Of a stretch of DNA of 37,268 nt, positions 1,460 to 36,042 are shown one piece after another. The position numbers and the translations under genes are program-made. The notes below the pieces were generated by a model. The model had not been told where the DNA came from and ran no database searches. It was given only the letters and a program-made list of their open reading frames with translations. Every line of letters starts with the position of its first letter. Position 1 is the first letter of the stretch. The stretch is from Escherichia phage PEC14: the sequence record NC_073051.1. One strand, given 5' to 3'.

Positions 1460-1493
1460 ATTGGTTGCATCCATGCCAGCACCCTGCTAGATT
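1460..1493 (+). promoter_or_regulatory. candidate promoter ATTGGTTGCAT-N17-TAGATT upstream of early gene block
   Basis: TTGCAT at 1465-1470, 17-bp spacer, TAGATT at 1488-1493; about 30 bp upstream of ATG 1522. Confidence 0.4.
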
Positions 1494-1521
1494 GGTCGCA
1501 CACCAACATGAGGACTGAACG

Positions 1522-1836: not shown

Positions 1837-2106
1837 ATGGACCGCAGACGAGCTAAACAGCTTTCGTGGCATATTCCGCTGCATTGCATACGAATATGGG
1901 CGCAGAATGCGGTTGAGGGCGATTCTGTGTTCTGGTGCTATCGCGACGATGTGAAGCCATTAACGCAGACTCGCTATCTGCACCAGTTCGCCAGGGAGCA
2001 TGGGCTTGCCATAAAAACGTCCTTGCAACCAATTGGCATCCGTATTACATTACGCCGGAAGCCCGCAGTCGAGCGGGTAGGCAAACACTGGAGACTGAGC
2101 AAATGA
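1837..2106 (+). CDS. hypothetical protein (89 aa)
   Basis: ATG with AAGGGG SD; stop overlaps next start as ATGA. Confidence 0.4.
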   Translation: MDRRRAKQLSWHIPLHCIRIWAQNAVEGDSVFWCYRDDVKPLTQTRYLHQFAREHGLAIKTSLQPIGIRITLRRKPAVERVGKHWRLSK

Positions 2107-4292: not shown

Positions 4293-4298
4293 ACAATT

Positions 4299-4326
4299 AA
4301 GCCCGGTTAATTCCGGGCTTTTTATT
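4299..4326 (+). terminator. rho-independent terminator
   Basis: aagcccggttaattccgggctt followed by ttttatt. Confidence 0.7.
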
Positions 4327-4387
4327 GCTTGACTCGCAACCAACATAGACGCCATACTGCGACCAATCAACGAGAGGAGTAATCAAG

Positions 4388-4468
4388 ATGGCACGTAAAG
4401 ATATTTGGGTATTAGCGATCTGGACCACCGCGGCTTTTATCGGCATGGTTATTTGCGAATTGATATAG
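4388..4468 (+). CDS. 26-aa hydrophobic peptide (MARKDIWVLAIWTTAAFIGMVICELI) with strong SD
   Basis: GAGGAG 8 nt upstream of ATG; single TM-like span. Confidence 0.3.
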   Translation: MARKDIWVLAIWTTAAFIGMVICELI

Positions 4469-4481
4469 CCCGCCGCCATAC

Positions 4482-11924: not shown

Positions 11925-11953
11925 TTTGTCTTCCTTCATATCTCTGTTGGTGT

Positions 11954-11989
11954 GCAACCAATATACTGCAACCAACATTCACAATGCAA
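11954..11989 (-). promoter_or_regulatory. candidate promoter for minus-strand cassette: two ATTGGTTGC-type motifs plus TTGCAT-N18-TATATT
   Basis: Motifs read on minus strand, oriented toward the start at 11924. Confidence 0.4.
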
Positions 11990-17552: not shown

Positions 17553-17870
17553 AGCGGGACAGGCGGGACGTCCCGTTTTGTCCCGCCACCATTAAACTGC
17601 ATATATACTCACTACCAGTGCATAAACTAAAAGCGGGACAGGGGTGCTGTCCCGATCTGTCCCGCCCCTTAAAAGTGAATAGCTAAGCGGTTTTTCTGCA
17701 TAAAACAAACGGGACAAAAAACGGGACAGACCAGGGGCGGGACAAAGCGGGACAGCACCCTGTCCCTGCCAGTGCTGCCGCGGGTTTTAGCCGATCGGGA
17801 CAGGCGGGACAAAGCCCAGTCTTTCAGACTAGACGGGGGTCATTGGCCCCCCTCGTCTGAGACTGAATAA
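17553..17870 (+). repeat. copy 2 of duplicated element plus extended CGGGACA heptamer array (direct and inverted copies) between chaperone and tape measure genes
   Basis: About 15 CGGGACA copies; 17710-17760 and 17796-17870 match 1150-1200 and 1236-1310. Confidence 0.85.
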
Positions 17871-28040: not shown

Positions 28041-28074
28041 AGTATTACACCGCTCGATCAAGAATGCAACCAAT
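28041..28074 (-). promoter_or_regulatory. candidate promoter ATTGGTTGCAT-N17-AATACT driving lipoprotein operon
   Basis: Motif on minus strand in the divergent region between lipoprotein and fibre genes. Confidence 0.35.
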
Positions 28075-28090
28075 TTACGAGGATTTAGCT

Positions 28091-29923
28091 ATGGCAGCGG
28101 GTACACTATCCGTAACGAATAACAGCAAGGCGGTTGTCGGGGTAGGCACGACGTTTACCGCGGTTAAAGCCGGAGACTTCTTATCGCTGGTAGTGGGGCA
28201 AGTACCCTACACTGTTGCGATCGCGTCCGTAGAAAGCGACACCGCGATTACGCTTGTGCTGCCGTTCGACGGACCCACGGCAACTGGCCTCGCGTGGGAT
28301 GGCGTTAAGCGCGATACCATGTCGCTGGCAACGATGGGCGTAACAGTACAGGCGCAGAAAGCGTTGCGCTTGATGATCGCGGACGAAAACAACTGGCGCG
28401 CAATCTTCGGAGACGAGGAAGAAATCGCGGTAACGCTGCCGAACGGGCAAGTTATGCAGGGTATGTCGTGGGGCTATCTGTCGCAATTGCTGAAGGAAGT
28501 TGACCCCGTTGAAATGCGCAACCTGCAACAACAAGCCGCGGCATCTGAAGCAGCAGCGCTGGTATCGCGTAATGAGGCCGAAGGCTTCAAGAACGATACC
28601 AATACCATCAAGACGCAGACCAACCAGATTAAGGCAGATACGCAGGCTATCCGCGACGCCACCAATACCATCAAGACGCAGACCAACAAGATTAAGGCAG
28701 ATACGCAGGCCATCAAAGACCAGACGAACCAGATCAAGACTGACACCGGCGTTATGAGGGACCAGGCCAACGCTGCGAAGACTGACGCGCAAGCTGCCAG
28801 CGCAGCCGCGCAGGGATTCCGCGATCAGGCCGAGGAGTGGGCGCAAAGCGTTAACGCGGATAACCTGCTAACAAAATCCGGCAACCTGGCAGGGCTTGCG
28901 GATAAATCGGCGTCGTGGAAGAACCTTATGCCTGCGGGGCCGCTGCGAATTGGGGCGCACCCCGTTGCGGACCTGGATGCCGCGACCCGGAAATGGACGC
29001 TGGAGCGTTTTACCAAAGGCGTGGCGGAGTCGTCGTGGACTGTCAGGAAAACCGTCACCACCACACCACAGAACGGCACTGTCGTCCGTGGCGGTGAGGT
29101 GGAATCGAGATATTCCAACCCAACATCTACGCAGTTCGCCCGTCTGTACTCAAGCTCTGTATTTGGTTCTTCTAACGCGGCTGTTGTTGAGGCAGAGGGT
29201 TCTTCCAGGCACGCTTATAAATTCTATGAGGATGGCACAGTTGACTTCCGACAGTCAGGGAAGACCAACCCATTCCGCATGTATACAAATATTGGAACAT
29301 GGAATGGCATAACGGACGCCACGGCATCCAACTTGACAACTAACGGAATGGACAGGGTGGCCATTTCGAGCGGCTCAGATACTCTGGTGCACGGATATTC
29401 TATCGGCGGCACCAAACCTAATGGATATCCAACAAAGGTTGGATATCACATGTATATTCCAGGCAATAATGCATTTGGTATTGCTTGCATGGTAATCGGT
29501 GGGGATAACGGAAAATTTTGCCGTTACTTTTTTGACATTGATGGTCTAATATATGGTTCGACCGATTACGGGAACTTCAGTTATATGAAAAATGGCACTT
29601 CTGACTTACGTGTAAAACACGGCATCGCCCATGTTGGAGTTGACAAATCATACTCTAATATTAAAGGGCTGGAATTTGTAGAGTTCATTTATGATAATGA
29701 CGAACAAAATCGAGTTCGGCATGGCGTGATTGCACAGCAAGCAGAGGTTGTTGAGCCTTTATATGTCAAGACGCGCAAATATGTTGGCAATAATCCAGGA
29801 GAGATTGTGGAGCAGAAGGAACTGGACACTACGCCGATGCTTCTGGATACCATGCATGTTGTGCAGACGTTGATGCAGAAGATCGAGGCTATGGAGGCCG
29901 AGATCGCGGCGCTGAAGAAATGA
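28091..29923 (+). CDS. side tail fibre with C-terminal intramolecular chaperone (peptidase S74-like) domain
   Basis: Start at ATG 28091 with GAGGA SD; heptad-like repeat shaft; C-terminal SDLRVKHGI...coiled-coil ending typical of self-cleaving chaperone domains. Confidence 0.75.
   Translation: MAAGTLSVTNNSKAVVGVGTTFTAVKAGDFLSLVVGQVPYTVAIASVESDTAITLVLPFDGPTATGLAWDGVKRDTMSLATMGVTVQAQKALRLMIADENNWRAIFGDEEEIAVTLPNGQVMQGMSWGYLSQLLKEVDPVEMRNLQQQAAASEAAALVSRNEAEGFKNDTNTIKTQTNQIKADTQAIRDATNTIKTQTNKIKADTQAIKDQTNQIKTDTGVMRDQANAAKTDAQAASAAAQGFRDQAEEWAQSVNADNLLTKSGNLAGLADKSASWKNLMPAGPLRIGAHPVADLDAATRKWTLERFTKGVAESSWTVRKTVTTTPQNGTVVRGGEVESRYSNPTSTQFARLYSSSVFGSSNAAVVEAEGSSRHAYKFYEDGTVDFRQSGKTNPFRMYTNIGTWNGITDATASNLTTNGMDRVAISSGSDTLVHGYSIGGTKPNGYPTKVGYHMYIPGNNAFGIACMVIGGDNGKFCRYFFDIDGLIYGSTDYGNFSYMKNGTSDLRVKHGIAHVGVDKSYSNIKGLEFVEFIYDNDEQNRVRHGVIAQQAEVVEPLYVKTRKYVGNNPGEIVEQKELDTTPMLLDTMHVVQTLMQKIEAMEAEIAALKK
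28598..28723 (+). repeat. in-frame 63-bp tandem duplication in fibre shaft
   Basis: Two adjacent near-identical 63-bp units encoding TNTIKTQTN(Q/K)IKADTQAI... Confidence 0.7.
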
Positions 29924-29952: not shown

Positions 29953-30526
29953 AGTTTGAGTTTTCCCAGTCCATTTTGCGCCGCACAAGCGGGCTTTCGT
30001 AATATTCCTTACCTTCCACTTCCACTAAAGGCCAATCGTTCACGATCACGTATGGCTCTGCTATGTCCTCAATCACACCGTGCGCGCTATGCTGCCCGAA
30101 CGACACACCGACCAGAATAACCCCGGCAACTCGACGTGAAAGATACTCGCGAGCGCAACGGGCCTCAACCAGACCGCGACGGATGCCGCTGGTGGCTTTG
30201 ACCTCATATGTCCAGACGGCATCAATCATATGCTCTTTGTAGTCGGGACCGGATTTTACCTTGCGCTTGCCAACCATGATAATATCGCCGCGGTCGATAG
30301 TGTTAGCGCTAAACAGGCCGGTACGCATTAGCAAACCTTGCGGGATACAGCTACGCCCGCCCGCCTGCCCTTCGAGGTACATGCCCGCAAACATCTCGCC
30401 AAGCACACCGACAAGACGGCTTTGCTTGCACGCGTCAGACTTGTATCGCCACTGGTCAAACTCGATGCTTGCTATCATTGCCGCCAGGTGGAATTGTTTA
30501 CCGGTTATTTCATATTCGCCGTACAT
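29951..30526 (-). CDS. hypothetical protein (191 aa), possible PD-(D/E)xK-type nuclease
   Basis: GAGGGG SD; segment IDAVWTYEVK loosely fits a D...ExK pattern. Confidence 0.45.
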   Translation of the reverse strand: MYGEYEITGKQFHLAAMIASIEFDQWRYKSDACKQSRLVGVLGEMFAGMYLEGQAGGRSCIPQGLLMRTGLFSANTIDRGDIIMVGKRKVKSGPDYKEHMIDAVWTYEVKATSGIRRGLVEARCAREYLSRRVAGVILVGVSFGQHSAHGVIEDIAEPYVIVNDWPLVEVEGKEYYESPLVRRKMDWENSN

Positions 30527-30568
30527 TGTGAACCCCTCATTGATGCGGGCCGAAGCCCGCTATTAGAA

Positions 30569-31090
30569 TTATTTAAGTGCGCCAGTCACCAGTGTTTTTT
30601 CCATGTTACGGAAATCTTCCTGCGTCATGCAGATTTTCGATCCGTCTTCGCCCGTGAGCACGACCATAGGCTGGACGTCCTGGGCTACAACTCCAAAATT
30701 GGCGGCGTTAACCGTCTTGCCAACAGATGAAGAAGGATGCCACGTCCCCGCGACGTCGATGGGCCAACCTTTGAGGCTATCGTATTGCGCTGCCGTTGTA
30801 TCGATCTGAATCTCGTCATGCACGGTCATGTAAGACTCGCCCAGCAGGGCGGCATACGCCACCAGATCCACGATGTTATCTTCCTGGTGTTTACGGTGCT
30901 GGCGCACCAGCTTCAGGCAGATCAGGAAGGTCCAGGCTTCTTGCTCGGACAGGTCGCGCCCGGTAAGCGCGTTAAACACGGCAGCGATTTGTTTAGCGCT
31001 GCGTTCTTCTTTCGCGTTGTCATAGCCGTTTTCTTTCCCGCGCTGTTCCATAGTGGTGGCGGCGTTTTTGCAGTATTCGTATGCTTTCAC
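30569..31090 (-). CDS. hypothetical protein (173 aa)
   Basis: GTG start with AAGGG SD; no motif recognised. Confidence 0.45.
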   Translation of the reverse strand: MKAYEYCKNAATTMEQRGKENGYDNAKEERSAKQIAAVFNALTGRDLSEQEAWTFLICLKLVRQHRKHQEDNIVDLVAYAALLGESYMTVHDEIQIDTTAAQYDSLKGWPIDVAGTWHPSSSVGKTVNAANFGVVAQDVQPMVVLTGEDGSKICMTQEDFRNMEKTLVTGALK

Positions 31091-31137
31091 AGTATTACCC
31101 TTTTTAGTGAGGGGGCTGTATTGCCCCCGACACGTTT

Positions 31138-31167
31138 ACTATAGTGCAACCAATCTATTGGTTGCAA
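31138..31167 (-). promoter_or_regulatory. perfect palindrome TGCAACCAAT-CT-ATTGGTTGCA with TTGCAA-N18-TATAGT
   Basis: Read directly at 31145-31166; overlaps the 3' end of the HAD gene and lies upstream of the gene starting at 31090. Confidence 0.45.
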
Positions 31168-31625
31168 GTGAATTTTGCAACGTTTATCGCGTAAATTTTC
31201 GGGACCAAATCACCACACGCCCGACGAATTGCTGCGATGTTCTTCGGGCAGTCTTCAATGATGACCAGTTCCGACACGTCCGCATAACAGACCATTTTGA
31301 ACACGGCGCACGCCTTAAACTCTGGCGGCGGGGTGTCGTCCAGCATGTGGCGCATAAACAACCTGCCTACCGGGAAGACCTCCAATTGCTCGGCGGTGGT
31401 TTCCCAGCATTCTCGCTGCCGGTTGGTCAGATACGCGATCTCGAAGCCTTGCTCTTTATACATGCGCAGTAGCGGCAGCATATCCATGTTCAGGTCTTCG
31501 CGGACGTGCGCCTTGTGCCACTTCGCCCAAAAGGTGGATTTAGTTTTTACACCCGGCACCAGGTCGGCACGCGCATCGCTTGAACCGTTAATAACGCCAT
31601 CCAAATCGCAAATCAGTAATTTCAT
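31155..31625 (-). CDS. HAD-superfamily phosphatase (possible nucleotidase)
   Basis: N-terminal HAD motif I LLICDLDGVI. Confidence 0.55.
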   Translation of the reverse strand: MKLLICDLDGVINGSSDARADLVPGVKTKSTFWAKWHKAHVREDLNMDMLPLLRMYKEQGFEIAYLTNRQRECWETTAEQLEVFPVGRLFMRHMLDDTPPPEFKACAVFKMVCYADVSELVIIEDCPKNIAAIRRACGDLVPKIYAINVAKFTCNQ

Positions 31626-31826
31626 TTTAAGCTCTCAATAAGGGTGTATCGGGCGCTGCGCGCGGTGAAGGAGTTACACACGAAATGGCAACGCGTGGTT
31701 ATGACAAGCCAGCCGGTAAGATCTAGGCCCAGAATATATTCAGGCCGCGACACGCGACGCACACGATCGCGGCGGGGGTCGATGCAGAAGTCTTTTTGCA
31801 TTTGGTCTACTACCGCAGGGTCGCGG

Positions 31827-32312
31827 TCAACGATTAAGATATTCAAGGAGTTCTCCTTCGCTCATTATTTCAATTTGTGCGCTGCCGGTGGGCGGCGCTT
31901 CGTCAAAGATTATCAATTGCTGGCACTTGTTATTGCTCGGACCGACTTCACCGGTTACAGCATGTATGAATCGGATCCGCCAGTCCAGAAGAATTATCAG
32001 GTTTGCAGTCTTCCGGGCCAGCTTTGCCCACTTCGTCGACGTGTCCTGATTCAGCAGCATGACGGTCCGGCGTCCGTGCGCTGCACACTCGACCCACGGC
32101 AGCGGATCGGAATACGGCGGGTTGCACCACTTCCACCCTTTCAACTCTGACCAGTCCGCCTCAAGCGCGCTGTGCTCTGCCGTGAAGTAACGCGGTAGCA
32201 GGTGGTTGGCATCGCTCGCCGCCATGTCATAACGGAATCGGTACTTCCGGCGCAGCGGTTTAAATAAAGCTGGCGGCGTGCGCCAGCTATCTTTTTGCTC
32301 ACTCTTCTGCAT
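31827..32312 (-). CDS. dam: DNA N6-adenine methyltransferase (phage Dam family)
   Basis: WRTPPALF motif and catalytic NPPYS motif present. Confidence 0.75.
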   Translation of the reverse strand: MQKSEQKDSWRTPPALFKPLRRKYRFRYDMAASDANHLLPRYFTAEHSALEADWSELKGWKWCNPPYSDPLPWVECAAHGRRTVMLLNQDTSTKWAKLARKTANLIILLDWRIRFIHAVTGEVGPSNNKCQQLIIFDEAPPTGSAQIEIMSEGELLEYLNR

Positions 32313-32763
32313 GGTCGGTGTCTATCGCATACAGGGCGATTTTATCGCCGGTTTTGAGAATGCGTTGCACGCGCTTTGTCCCCTCGACACTAAGCGGACG
32401 CGCGTCCGGGTAGAAGCTGCCATTTGTAGGGTTGCGCCACGCCATAAGCACCAAATCTTTACGGTCAACCTTAGACTGGCGACCCTTCGGTCGCACGTAC
32501 TCCTCGGCCCGTTTACAGTGCTCCCGCAACGCCTCAGCCGTGATGCGGTTTAGTGCAACGCTGGTGGTGTATCCGGTGCGCTGCATAATCCCCATCAATT
32601 CGAATAGCAGTCCGAAGCGCTCCGCTAGATCCTGGCGCACTTTCTTCTCTCCTTCATATAGCGCCTGGTTGGTGTCCGCCAACGCGTTCGCACGTTCGGC
32701 CTGTTCGCGGGCTTTAAGGCATTGCGCAGCCCAGTAATCCTTTTCTTCTTGTAAAATTTTCAT
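32299..32763 (-). CDS. hypothetical protein (154 aa)
   Basis: ATG abuts the upstream stop; overlaps dam start. Confidence 0.45.
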   Translation of the reverse strand: MKILQEEKDYWAAQCLKAREQAERANALADTNQALYEGEKKVRQDLAERFGLLFELMGIMQRTGYTTSVALNRITAEALREHCKRAEEYVRPKGRQSKVDRKDLVLMAWRNPTNGSFYPDARPLSVEGTKRVQRILKTGDKIALYAIDTDHAEE

Positions 32764-33006: not shown

Positions 33007-33051
33007 GGTTAAATCCTCATATAAAAAAGGGCATCCAAACCGGACACCCTC

Positions 33052-33085
33052 AATATAATGCAACCAATATGATTATGCAACCAAT
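33052..33085 (-). promoter_or_regulatory. candidate promoter: two ATTGGTTGCAT copies with TTGCAT-N17-TATATT
   Basis: Read on minus strand at 33060-33068 and 33077-33085; -10 at 33052-33057. Confidence 0.45.
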
Positions 33086-36008: not shown

Positions 36009-36042
36009 ACTATACCGCTACGCGACCAATTCAGCAACCAAT
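36009..36042 (-). promoter_or_regulatory. candidate promoter ATTGGTTGCTG-N17-TATAGT inside 3' end of VRR-NUC gene
   Basis: Motif copies at 36022-36030 and 36034-36042; -10 at 36009-36014. Confidence 0.35.

Follow-up and report, generated by a model that had tools for sequence, protein, structure and literature searches.

The question raised by this locus is why a perfect palindrome should lie between two genes of the same orientation, and whether the symmetry itself or the short sequence from which it is built has been kept. The window, i.e. the whole stretch of DNA that was analysed (37,268 nucleotides), was found to be 100% identical from 30500 to 32400 to Escherichia phage PEC9 (ON548431.1, genus Dhillonvirus, 44,379 bp), and approximately 155 further Dhillonvirus records were 80-95% identical to the same interval. 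Window coordinates were obtained by adding 1420 to the position in ON548431.1, and positions marked as "record" are those of ON548431.1 itself. The initial annotation had described a perfect inverted repeat with a 2-bp spacer, which overlaps the stop codon of a HAD phosphatase gene, lies about 55 bp upstream of the next minus-strand gene and is followed by a hairpin, and had explained it as an operator for a dimeric protein. The description was borne out: 31145-31166 reads TGCAACCAAT-CT-ATTGGTTGCA, with 10-nt arms that are 100% complementary and a 2-nt gap, the palindrome is centred on the minus-strand TAG (31157..31155) and is followed after 54 nt by the GTG start (31090), and GGGGGC-tgtatt-GCCCCC is present at 31111-31128.

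As a symmetry, the palindrome is only mildly unusual. The window contains two perfect inverted repeats whose arms reach 10 nt or more and whose spacer does not exceed 6 nt. Sixty dinucleotide shuffles gave 0.35 on average, and 15 of them had one or more such repeats, so that the palindrome by itself is weak evidence. The other perfect 10-bp inverted repeat of the window, GATATCCAAC-cttt-GTTGGATATC (29424-29447), is located within the tail-fibre gene and was listed as terminator-like on the minus strand by a pattern scan.

The arm sequence was then considered as a motif in its own right. ATTGGTTGCA is the most enriched 10-mer in the PEC9 genome (9 copies against 0.10 expected), and its over-representation is not due to chance; ATTGGTTGC is present in 12 copies against 0.52 expected, a number reached in none of 100 shuffles. 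ATTGGTTGCA is also the commonest 10-mer in LM40P1 (12 copies), where it is found at the equivalent promoters. In PEC9, non-coding DNA or gene borders hold 15 of the 17 sites within one mismatch of the motif, and the unit conserved over all sites is R-TTGGTYGC-V. The distant relatives used for comparison were the metagenomic contigs L168, L170 and L172 (55-56% G+C), whose DNA polymerase and helicase-primase are 81-83% and 66% identical to those of PEC9, respectively. TTGGTTGC, at 10-14 copies per 10-20 kb, is among the commonest 8-mers in these contigs and ranks first in L172; the copies are placed in promoter spacers, beside TTGAC hexamers or at +3. In the distant relatives, TTGC is followed by G, A or C, and the -35-like TTGCA is therefore not the conserved part.

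A search of IMG/VR with ATTGGTTGCANTATA returned mainly chance matches in unrelated contigs. When the inverted pair was searched there with a gap of 0-12 nt, 13 Dhillonvirus contigs were recovered, every one with a 22-nt span, together with approximately 14 unrelated contigs at other spacings, which by a rough estimate is roughly the number expected by chance. Full-text searches of the literature for the motif sequence, Dhillonvirus promoters or transcriptomes found nothing relevant, and no published description of the motif, of the Dhillonvirus promoters or of the Dhillonvirus transcriptional programme was found in the literature searched, the design itself being familiar.

The surroundings of the palindrome were examined for promoter elements by a consensus hexamer scan. 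On the minus strand, TTGCAA (31167..31162) and TATAGT (31143..31138) are separated by an 18-nt spacer and give 9/12 matches. The spacing falls within the 16-18 nt of sigma-70-type promoters, the -10 hexamer has A at position 2 and T at position 6, and the pair is located upstream of a gene of the same orientation and is kept in relatives. On these grounds, the palindrome is predicted, with good confidence, to form a sigma-70-type promoter. The initial annotation had linked the motif to promoters and to the -35 element; the distal copy does supply the -35 hexamer, and what had been missed was the complete minus-strand promoter TTGCAA-18-TATAGT. TTGCAA is itself palindromic, and the distal copy therefore gives a -35 hexamer in either orientation. 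The final codons of the HAD gene (CNQ*) are written in the distal copy. Both hexamers, the hairpin, the Shine-Dalgarno-like sequence and the start codon are all retained in the relatives whose region was extracted, the DUF6378 gene having ATG there at the position equivalent to GTG 31090. A third TTGCAA (31176-31181), 14 bp upstream of the palindrome and within the HAD coding sequence, is replaced in relatives by TTGCGA, TGGCAA or TAGCAA through synonymous changes and is probably non-functional. The features of the locus and of the other promoters that carry the motif are collected in Table 1.

Table 1. Predicted features at the palindrome and at sister promoters carrying the 10-mer (window coordinates, unless marked as record positions of ON548431.1)
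Feature	Position	Strand	Remarks
Distal 10-mer	31157..31166		ATTGGTTGCA on the plus strand, reversed relative to minus-strand transcription; overlaps HAD stop codon
Proximal 10-mer	31145..31154		Minus-strand ATTGGTTGCA; covers about -23..-14, with one nt between it and the -10 hexamer
-35-like TTGCAA	31162..31167	-	Promoter scan; retained in all three architectures; TCGCAA in Sponge
-10-like TATAGT	31138..31143	-	Promoter scan; TATATT or TATCTT in relatives
Conserved G+C stem-loop	31111..31128	-	Starts at about +3 to +4 of the inferred transcript (predicted start near 31131)
Shine-Dalgarno-like AAGGG	31098..31102	-	7 nt before GTG 31090; read from sequence
Downstream gene, DUF6378, 173 aa	30569..31090	-	PF19905, 1.1e-09
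Upstream gene, HAD-type phosphatase / polynucleotide-kinase-like	31155..31625	-	phrog_415, 9.3e-37
Sister promoter ATTGGTTGCA-N7-ATTGGTTGCA-T-TATATT	33052..33085	-	Direct repeats 17 bp apart; distal copy gives -35 TTGCAT
Sister promoter ATTGGTTGCT-ga-ATTGGTCGCG-tagcgg-TATAGT	36009..36042	-	Direct repeats 12 bp apart
Sister promoter ATTGGTTGCAT-16-TAATAC	28042..28074	-	Single copy as -35; overlaps plus-strand tail-fibre start codon
Sister promoter TTGCAT-18-TATATT	11953..11989	-	GTTGGTTGCA at -23..-14; ATTGGTTGCA over -10 and +1
Sister promoter TTGACT-18-CATACT	4329..4367	+	Two reversed copies: CGCAACCAAC in spacer, TGCGACCAAT over -10 and +1
Sister promoter TTGCAT-17-TAGATT, before gene 1	1460..1500	+	Copies at -35 and over -10/+1
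Reversed-copy promoter TTGACC-17-TAGATT	record 38271		Copies in spacer and over -10/+1
Reversed-copy promoter TTGACT-17-TAATAT	record 41220		Copies in spacer and over -10/+1

Three architectures were found when the orthologous promoter was read in SECphi4, 8 GenBank records and 14 IMG/VR loci, 23 further phage sequences in all. In the commonest one, the pair is inverted as in PEC9, but the arms match over at most 9 bp and the gap is 3-4 nt; approximately 138 records, matching the PEC9 49-mer around the palindrome over at least 80% of its length, appear to keep such an inverted pair. In the second one, TTGCAACCAATAATGCAACCAAcTATATT, both copies are reversed (about 10 records, with JLBYU60, McMelon, slur05, slur06, TH11, TH13, Pandora71 and JohannBuxtorf as carriers), and in the third one, ATTGGTTGCAatccgtaTTTGGTTGCAcTATATT, both copies are forward and the upstream gene is a different one (3 LM40P1 records). 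The perfect 10+2 form hinges on the single base 31154 and occurs in PEC9 alone among the sequences read, PEC9 being also the sole record identical over the 49-mer in the phage collection. The distal copy is kept in all 23 sequences, including L013 and L015, in which the HAD stop codon has been lost and both arms are retained, and LM40P1 with its different upstream gene; the proximal copy is flipped, with its position unchanged, in JLBYU60, McMelon and L014.

Because three orientations occur at one orthologous promoter, the 10-mers are judged to be selected and the dyad is not. The special dimer-binding palindromic operator of the initial annotation did not withstand this comparison: inverted symmetry is replaced by direct repeats at the orthologous site in JLBYU60, McMelon, slur05 and LM40P1, and the other sites of the predicted regulon do not share it, being direct repeats 12, 14, 17, 23 or 31 bp apart or single copies. 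Judged from the aligned promoters, the 10-mer pair is conserved across this E. coli phage group (Dhillonvirus), and dyad symmetry itself is not the conserved feature.

The placement of the motif at the other promoters was compared with that at the palindrome. The layout -35, 7 nt, RTTGGTTGCA, N, TATAnT is shared with the promoters at 33085..33052 and 11989..11960, and the register of the proximal copy accordingly recurs at 33059-33068 and 11967-11976. Sixteen phages share almost unchanged copies of both 10-mers at the 33060 promoter, where none of the columns in the 7-nt linker is conserved; the genes downstream of this promoter vary among phages. The LM40P1 equivalent of the single-copy promoter at 28042..28074 carries a two-copy module. 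Over five genomes or loci, motif cores were located at -39, -31/-28, -22/-23 (both orientations), -5..-8 and +3 of predicted promoters. A core starting from -31 to +10 was found at 4 of the 34 predicted promoter sites in PEC9 (2.2% expected, P = 6e-3) and at 6 of the 38 in LM40P1 (2.2% expected, P = 2e-4), the sites having been picked by hexamers alone and the P values overstating the support, since orthologous promoters of related phages are non-independent observations.

Two further features were seen beside these promoters. A terminator-like hairpin with a T-run (33027-33057), with compensatory changes in L013 and LM40P1, is located 2 nt past the -10 hexamer of the 33085..33052 promoter; a transcript from this promoter would begin in the 5' arm of the hairpin, so that the terminator may stop only read-through from upstream. 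In three 5' UTRs (1491-1507, 11953-11946 on the minus strand and record 41358-41378), the near-+1 copy is followed by ACCAAC, the sequences being TTGGTCGCACACCAAC, TTGGTTGCACACCAAC and GTTGGTCATTAGCCAAC. Each of them has a small TTGGT-N5-ACCAA dyad directly before the Shine-Dalgarno sequence, which might represent an additional operator geometry or form a stem in the RNA.

The occurrence of the 10-mer in either orientation, at several promoter positions and with freely varying linkers argues strongly that it is a putative protein-binding unit. Recognition by a protein, beyond a role as a -35 element, had already been suggested in the initial annotation, and this part is well supported by the copies that are conserved in spacers and over -10 and +1 in either orientation and by the free variation of the bases between them. 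The palindrome is best explained, and fairly probably so, as paired operator sites within a host-type sigma-70 promoter. This promoter would re-start minus-strand transcription between the HAD phosphatase and DUF6378 genes, with E. coli RNA polymerase starting near 31131. A phage-encoded DNA-binding protein would recognise every R-TTGGTYGC-V unit singly, and the protein bound on the -35 hexamer and the spacer would block the polymerase, thereby shutting off or limiting the promoter; about ten other promoters with the same sites would be under identical control. The centres of the inverted units are 12 bp apart, about one helical turn, so that two bound subunits could touch, though orientation is interchangeable. 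A repressor is slightly favoured on account of the placement of the sites over -35, spacer, -10 and +1 at promoters with usable hexamers, and an activator or a dual-function regulator is kept in view, particularly because sites also precede the terminase/head operon. As far as sequence can tell, the whole would be an undescribed but conventional phage regulon.

Among the competing explanations, the one that survives best takes the 10-mer as only a promoter element for E. coli sigma-70 polymerase, with the palindrome as two such elements back to back, for example in divergent promoters, and with no dedicated binder. It would account for the many PEC9 copies that give a TTGCA(A/T) hexamer at the proper distance from the -10, and the self-palindromic TTGCAA agrees with it. 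It is nevertheless improbable: proximal copies at -23..-14, over the -10 or at +3 are without a usable -10 at 16-18 nt downstream, reversed copies adjoin separate canonical TTGAC hexamers, the plus-strand partner of the palindrome would have just TATCGC as its -10, and the variation after TTGC in distant relatives leaves TTGCA without conservation.

A fixed register relative to -35 and -10 across about ten dispersed promoters makes it quite improbable that the sites serve mainly as iterons for replication or packaging, or as recombination substrates for cassette shuffling in the style of the T4-type promoter-stem-loop units, with a secondary promoter association. Six or seven copies are indeed clustered at 929-1500 beside the helicase-primase gene, motif promoters are found at mosaic junctions such as 33060, and in McMelon a gene has been inserted at the hairpin of the present promoter with duplication of the hairpin; the clustered layout expected of iterons, however, is seen in a separate repeat family, GCGGGACA. 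Cassette shuffling as such would not conflict with operator function. GCGGGACA is the second over-represented repeat and forms two clusters of about 7 copies each, one at 1149-1252, just after the helicase-primase gene and downstream of a motif-bearing TATAAT promoter, and the other at 17554-17812, in a non-coding gap of approximately 385 bp preceding the tape-measure gene; these clusters may be origin iterons or terminase sites.

Binding of the sites by the host repressor CytR was assessed against its published consensus, namely TGCAA-N2-3-TTGCA, the palindrome TTGCAA, or AYGTGCAAC-N10-13-GTTRCATT octamers, inverted or direct (PMC3454398). The palindrome reads AGTGCAAC-N10-GTTGCAAG, which resembles CytR half-sites, and the GGTTGCATT copies at 33059-33085 resemble published operators. 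CytR is very improbable as the cognate protein, since ATTGG, which is outside the CytR site, is as conserved as TTGC in every copy, the TGCAA/TTGCA half-sites present in PEC9 copies are TTGCG or TTGCC at the same sites of distant relatives, and no TGTGA-N6-TCACA within 2 mismatches, as would mark the flanking CRP sites with which CytR normally acts, was found near any motif promoter.

Least probable is a stem-loop at the 3' end of the HAD transcript, terminating transcription or protecting the message. The 9-bp stem and 4-nt loop into which the minus-strand RNA folds are followed by CUAUAGUAAACG, which is no U-run, and the fold reaches a z-score of only -1.52. The terminator-like entry for the palindrome in the pattern scan refers to the plus strand and not to the transcribed one. 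Approximately 13 direct-repeat records in which the stem is impossible keep both 10-mers, and the 10-mer is conserved singly elsewhere in either orientation.

The hairpin at 31111-31128, downstream of the predicted operator sites, was analysed separately. Its fold was calculated at -16.5 kcal/mol (z = -2.28), and 5 pairs of the stem are conserved in 16 sequences, one pair being changed from G-C to A-U in 2 sequences; the GGGAGGC/GCCTCCC variants gain an extra A-U pair. On the minus strand, the hairpin is followed by UCACUAAAAAGGG and not by a U-run, and a G+C stem-loop with a U-run on the transcribed strand, as in intrinsic terminators, was found neither here nor at the palindrome. No Rfam family match at the gathering score was obtained anywhere in the window. 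With no U-run and a place at the start of the inferred transcript, the hairpin may, as a guess, stabilise the 5' end or take part in its processing. In McMelon (L162, OR896838.1; locus 492-827), an additional 336-nt gene is located between the promoter hairpin and the DUF6378 gene, and the hairpin, ACCACATCGGGAGGCAATAC(C/T)GCCTCCC, is duplicated and flanks the inserted gene on both sides, which suggests cassette insertion via recombination at the hairpin.

For the protein that would bind the 10-mer, gp55 (PEC9_55, USL85418.1; record 41397-41726, outside the window; 109 aa) is the most likely candidate, and its assignment is put forward tentatively, at a confidence somewhat below that given to the repressor role. 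It is the sole protein with a helix-turn-helix (HTH) above Pfam thresholds among the PEC9 proteins scanned (part of 56), with HTH_23 at 3e-07, Sigma70_r4_2 at 7.4e-07 and HTH_28 at 1.6e-06, all above the curated cut-offs, and it is co-conserved with the motif; its candidacy follows from these two observations. gp55 was found in 155 records, all of them Dhillonvirus, and a profile-based locus search found no relatives outside Dhillonvirus-like contigs. Two alleles occur, whose differences are almost confined to residues 1-46, and an alignment of 15 homologues, distant ones among them, shows residues 47-106 almost without change and the N-terminal approximately 45 residues hypervariable and almost unalignable. 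The HTH, whose recognition helix in gp55 reads NxSTVRSWVRN, is retained in L168, L170 and L172, and in the distant contigs one motif copy is located within the 5' UTR of the gp55 homologue.

The AlphaFold2 model of P0002, which is 98% identical to gp55, has a mean pLDDT of 85.2, with a helix at 21-79 and the HTH at 84-107, so that the predicted fold places an HTH of sigma-region-4, LuxR or resolvase type after a long helix; Foldseek against the PDB returned local HTH matches only (LuxR/NarL, resolvase and IstA), with E-values above 1. The conservation of the gp55 HTH could also serve another role, for example at a replication origin beside the helicase-primase gene. gp55 is not Ksap1, the Dhillonvirus protein sensed by KpAvs2, which is receiver-domain-like and dispensable.

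The binders proposed in the initial annotation fared less well. Its HTH-phosphoesterase (gp9) and zinc-ribbon protein (gp40) are without a homologue in the matching regions of the distant relatives that keep the motif; its terminase small subunit is only 58-66% conserved in them, and gp55 is judged the better candidate. gp1, with a weak Cro-like match (E = 0.042, below threshold), and gp9, with a weak N-terminal HTH, were dropped as candidates: L168, L170 and L172 retain the motif but show no homologue of either protein in the matching regions. An 89-aa ORF (1837-2106, plus strand), which is unannotated in PEC9 and matches phrog_12533, likewise has no homologue in the matching parts of these contigs.

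This ORF is one of several anomalies of the PEC9 record that are probable annotation problems. A 26-aa membrane-like ORF with a strong Shine-Dalgarno sequence (4389-4468, plus strand) is located opposite the annotated PEC9_8 (4297-4479, minus strand), for which no PHROG match was found; the annotated start of PEC9_16 (11978, minus strand) is upstream of its own promoter; and PEC9_36 is annotated (31051, minus strand) 13 codons short of GTG 31090, which is conserved as ATG in relatives.

A bolder and unlikely proposal, though less so than any of the competing explanations of the palindrome, would make gp55 a sigma-region-4-like protein that governs nearly all promoters of a phage without sign of lysogeny functions, by reading an asymmetric site of 9-10 bp that also serves as a -35-like element. 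gp55 would then compete with or replace sigma-70 region 4, and the 45 hypervariable residues at its N-terminus would form a rapidly evolving surface for interactions, for example under host-defence pressure. If true, a lytic siphovirus would have a global switch comparable to that of P1 C1, or a new sigma mimicry.

Dhillonviruses are standard test phages, several of them being in the BASEL collection and others having been used in defence-system studies. With a defined 10-bp site shared by about ten promoters and one strong candidate regulator, the system would offer a directly testable map of their gene expression, and the promoter/operator modules would be compact and portable for phage engineering. 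The interchangeable orientation at one orthologous promoter provides a clean natural experiment on operator geometry; beyond this exchange, the predicted design is conventional, with operators overlapping sigma-70 promoters.

The predicted paired operators were finally compared with known systems. Phage P1 C1 uses an asymmetric operator at many scattered promoters, single or paired, some forming imperfect palindromes, and overlapping -35/-10; the PEC9 site is likewise asymmetric, present at many promoters singly or in pairs, and overlaps core elements. P1 is temperate and its C1 operator is a different 17-bp sequence, whereas the Dhillonvirus records examined list no integrase or repressor, and vB_EcoS-B2 is termed lytic in its description. 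As with the operators of lambda CI/Cro and P22 Arc/Mnt, the sites overlap -35, spacer and -10 of sigma-70 promoters, the likely ligand is a small phage HTH protein and the PEC9 pair is a perfect dyad; in those systems, however, dyad symmetry and spacing are fixed requirements, and here the symmetry is swapped for direct repeats at the orthologous promoter of other phages. T4-type PeSL cassettes are repeated promoter-plus-stem-loop units that border variable genes and act as recombination substrates in myovirus hyperplastic regions. The McMelon insertion, bounded by two hairpin copies, resembles them, but the repeated unit here is a 10-mer in a fixed promoter register. The T4 MotA box of middle promoters, a case of sigma appropriation that involves MotA and AsiA, is centred near -30 and takes the place of the -35 element; the motif positions here range from -39 to +3. 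Among the PEC9 proteins scanned, none carried an annotation resembling MotA or AsiA. CytR operators also consist of short TGCAA/TTGCA half-sites, inverted or direct, with variable spacing, a tolerance ascribed to the flexible repressor (PMC3454398). The phage unit (R-TTGGTYGC-V) differs from them in being longer, in its invariant TTGG, which CytR does not need, in the lack of flanking CRP sites and in the loss of TTGCA in distant relatives. On these comparisons, the predicted regulon is closest in logic to that of P1 C1 and in geometry to the operators of CytR.
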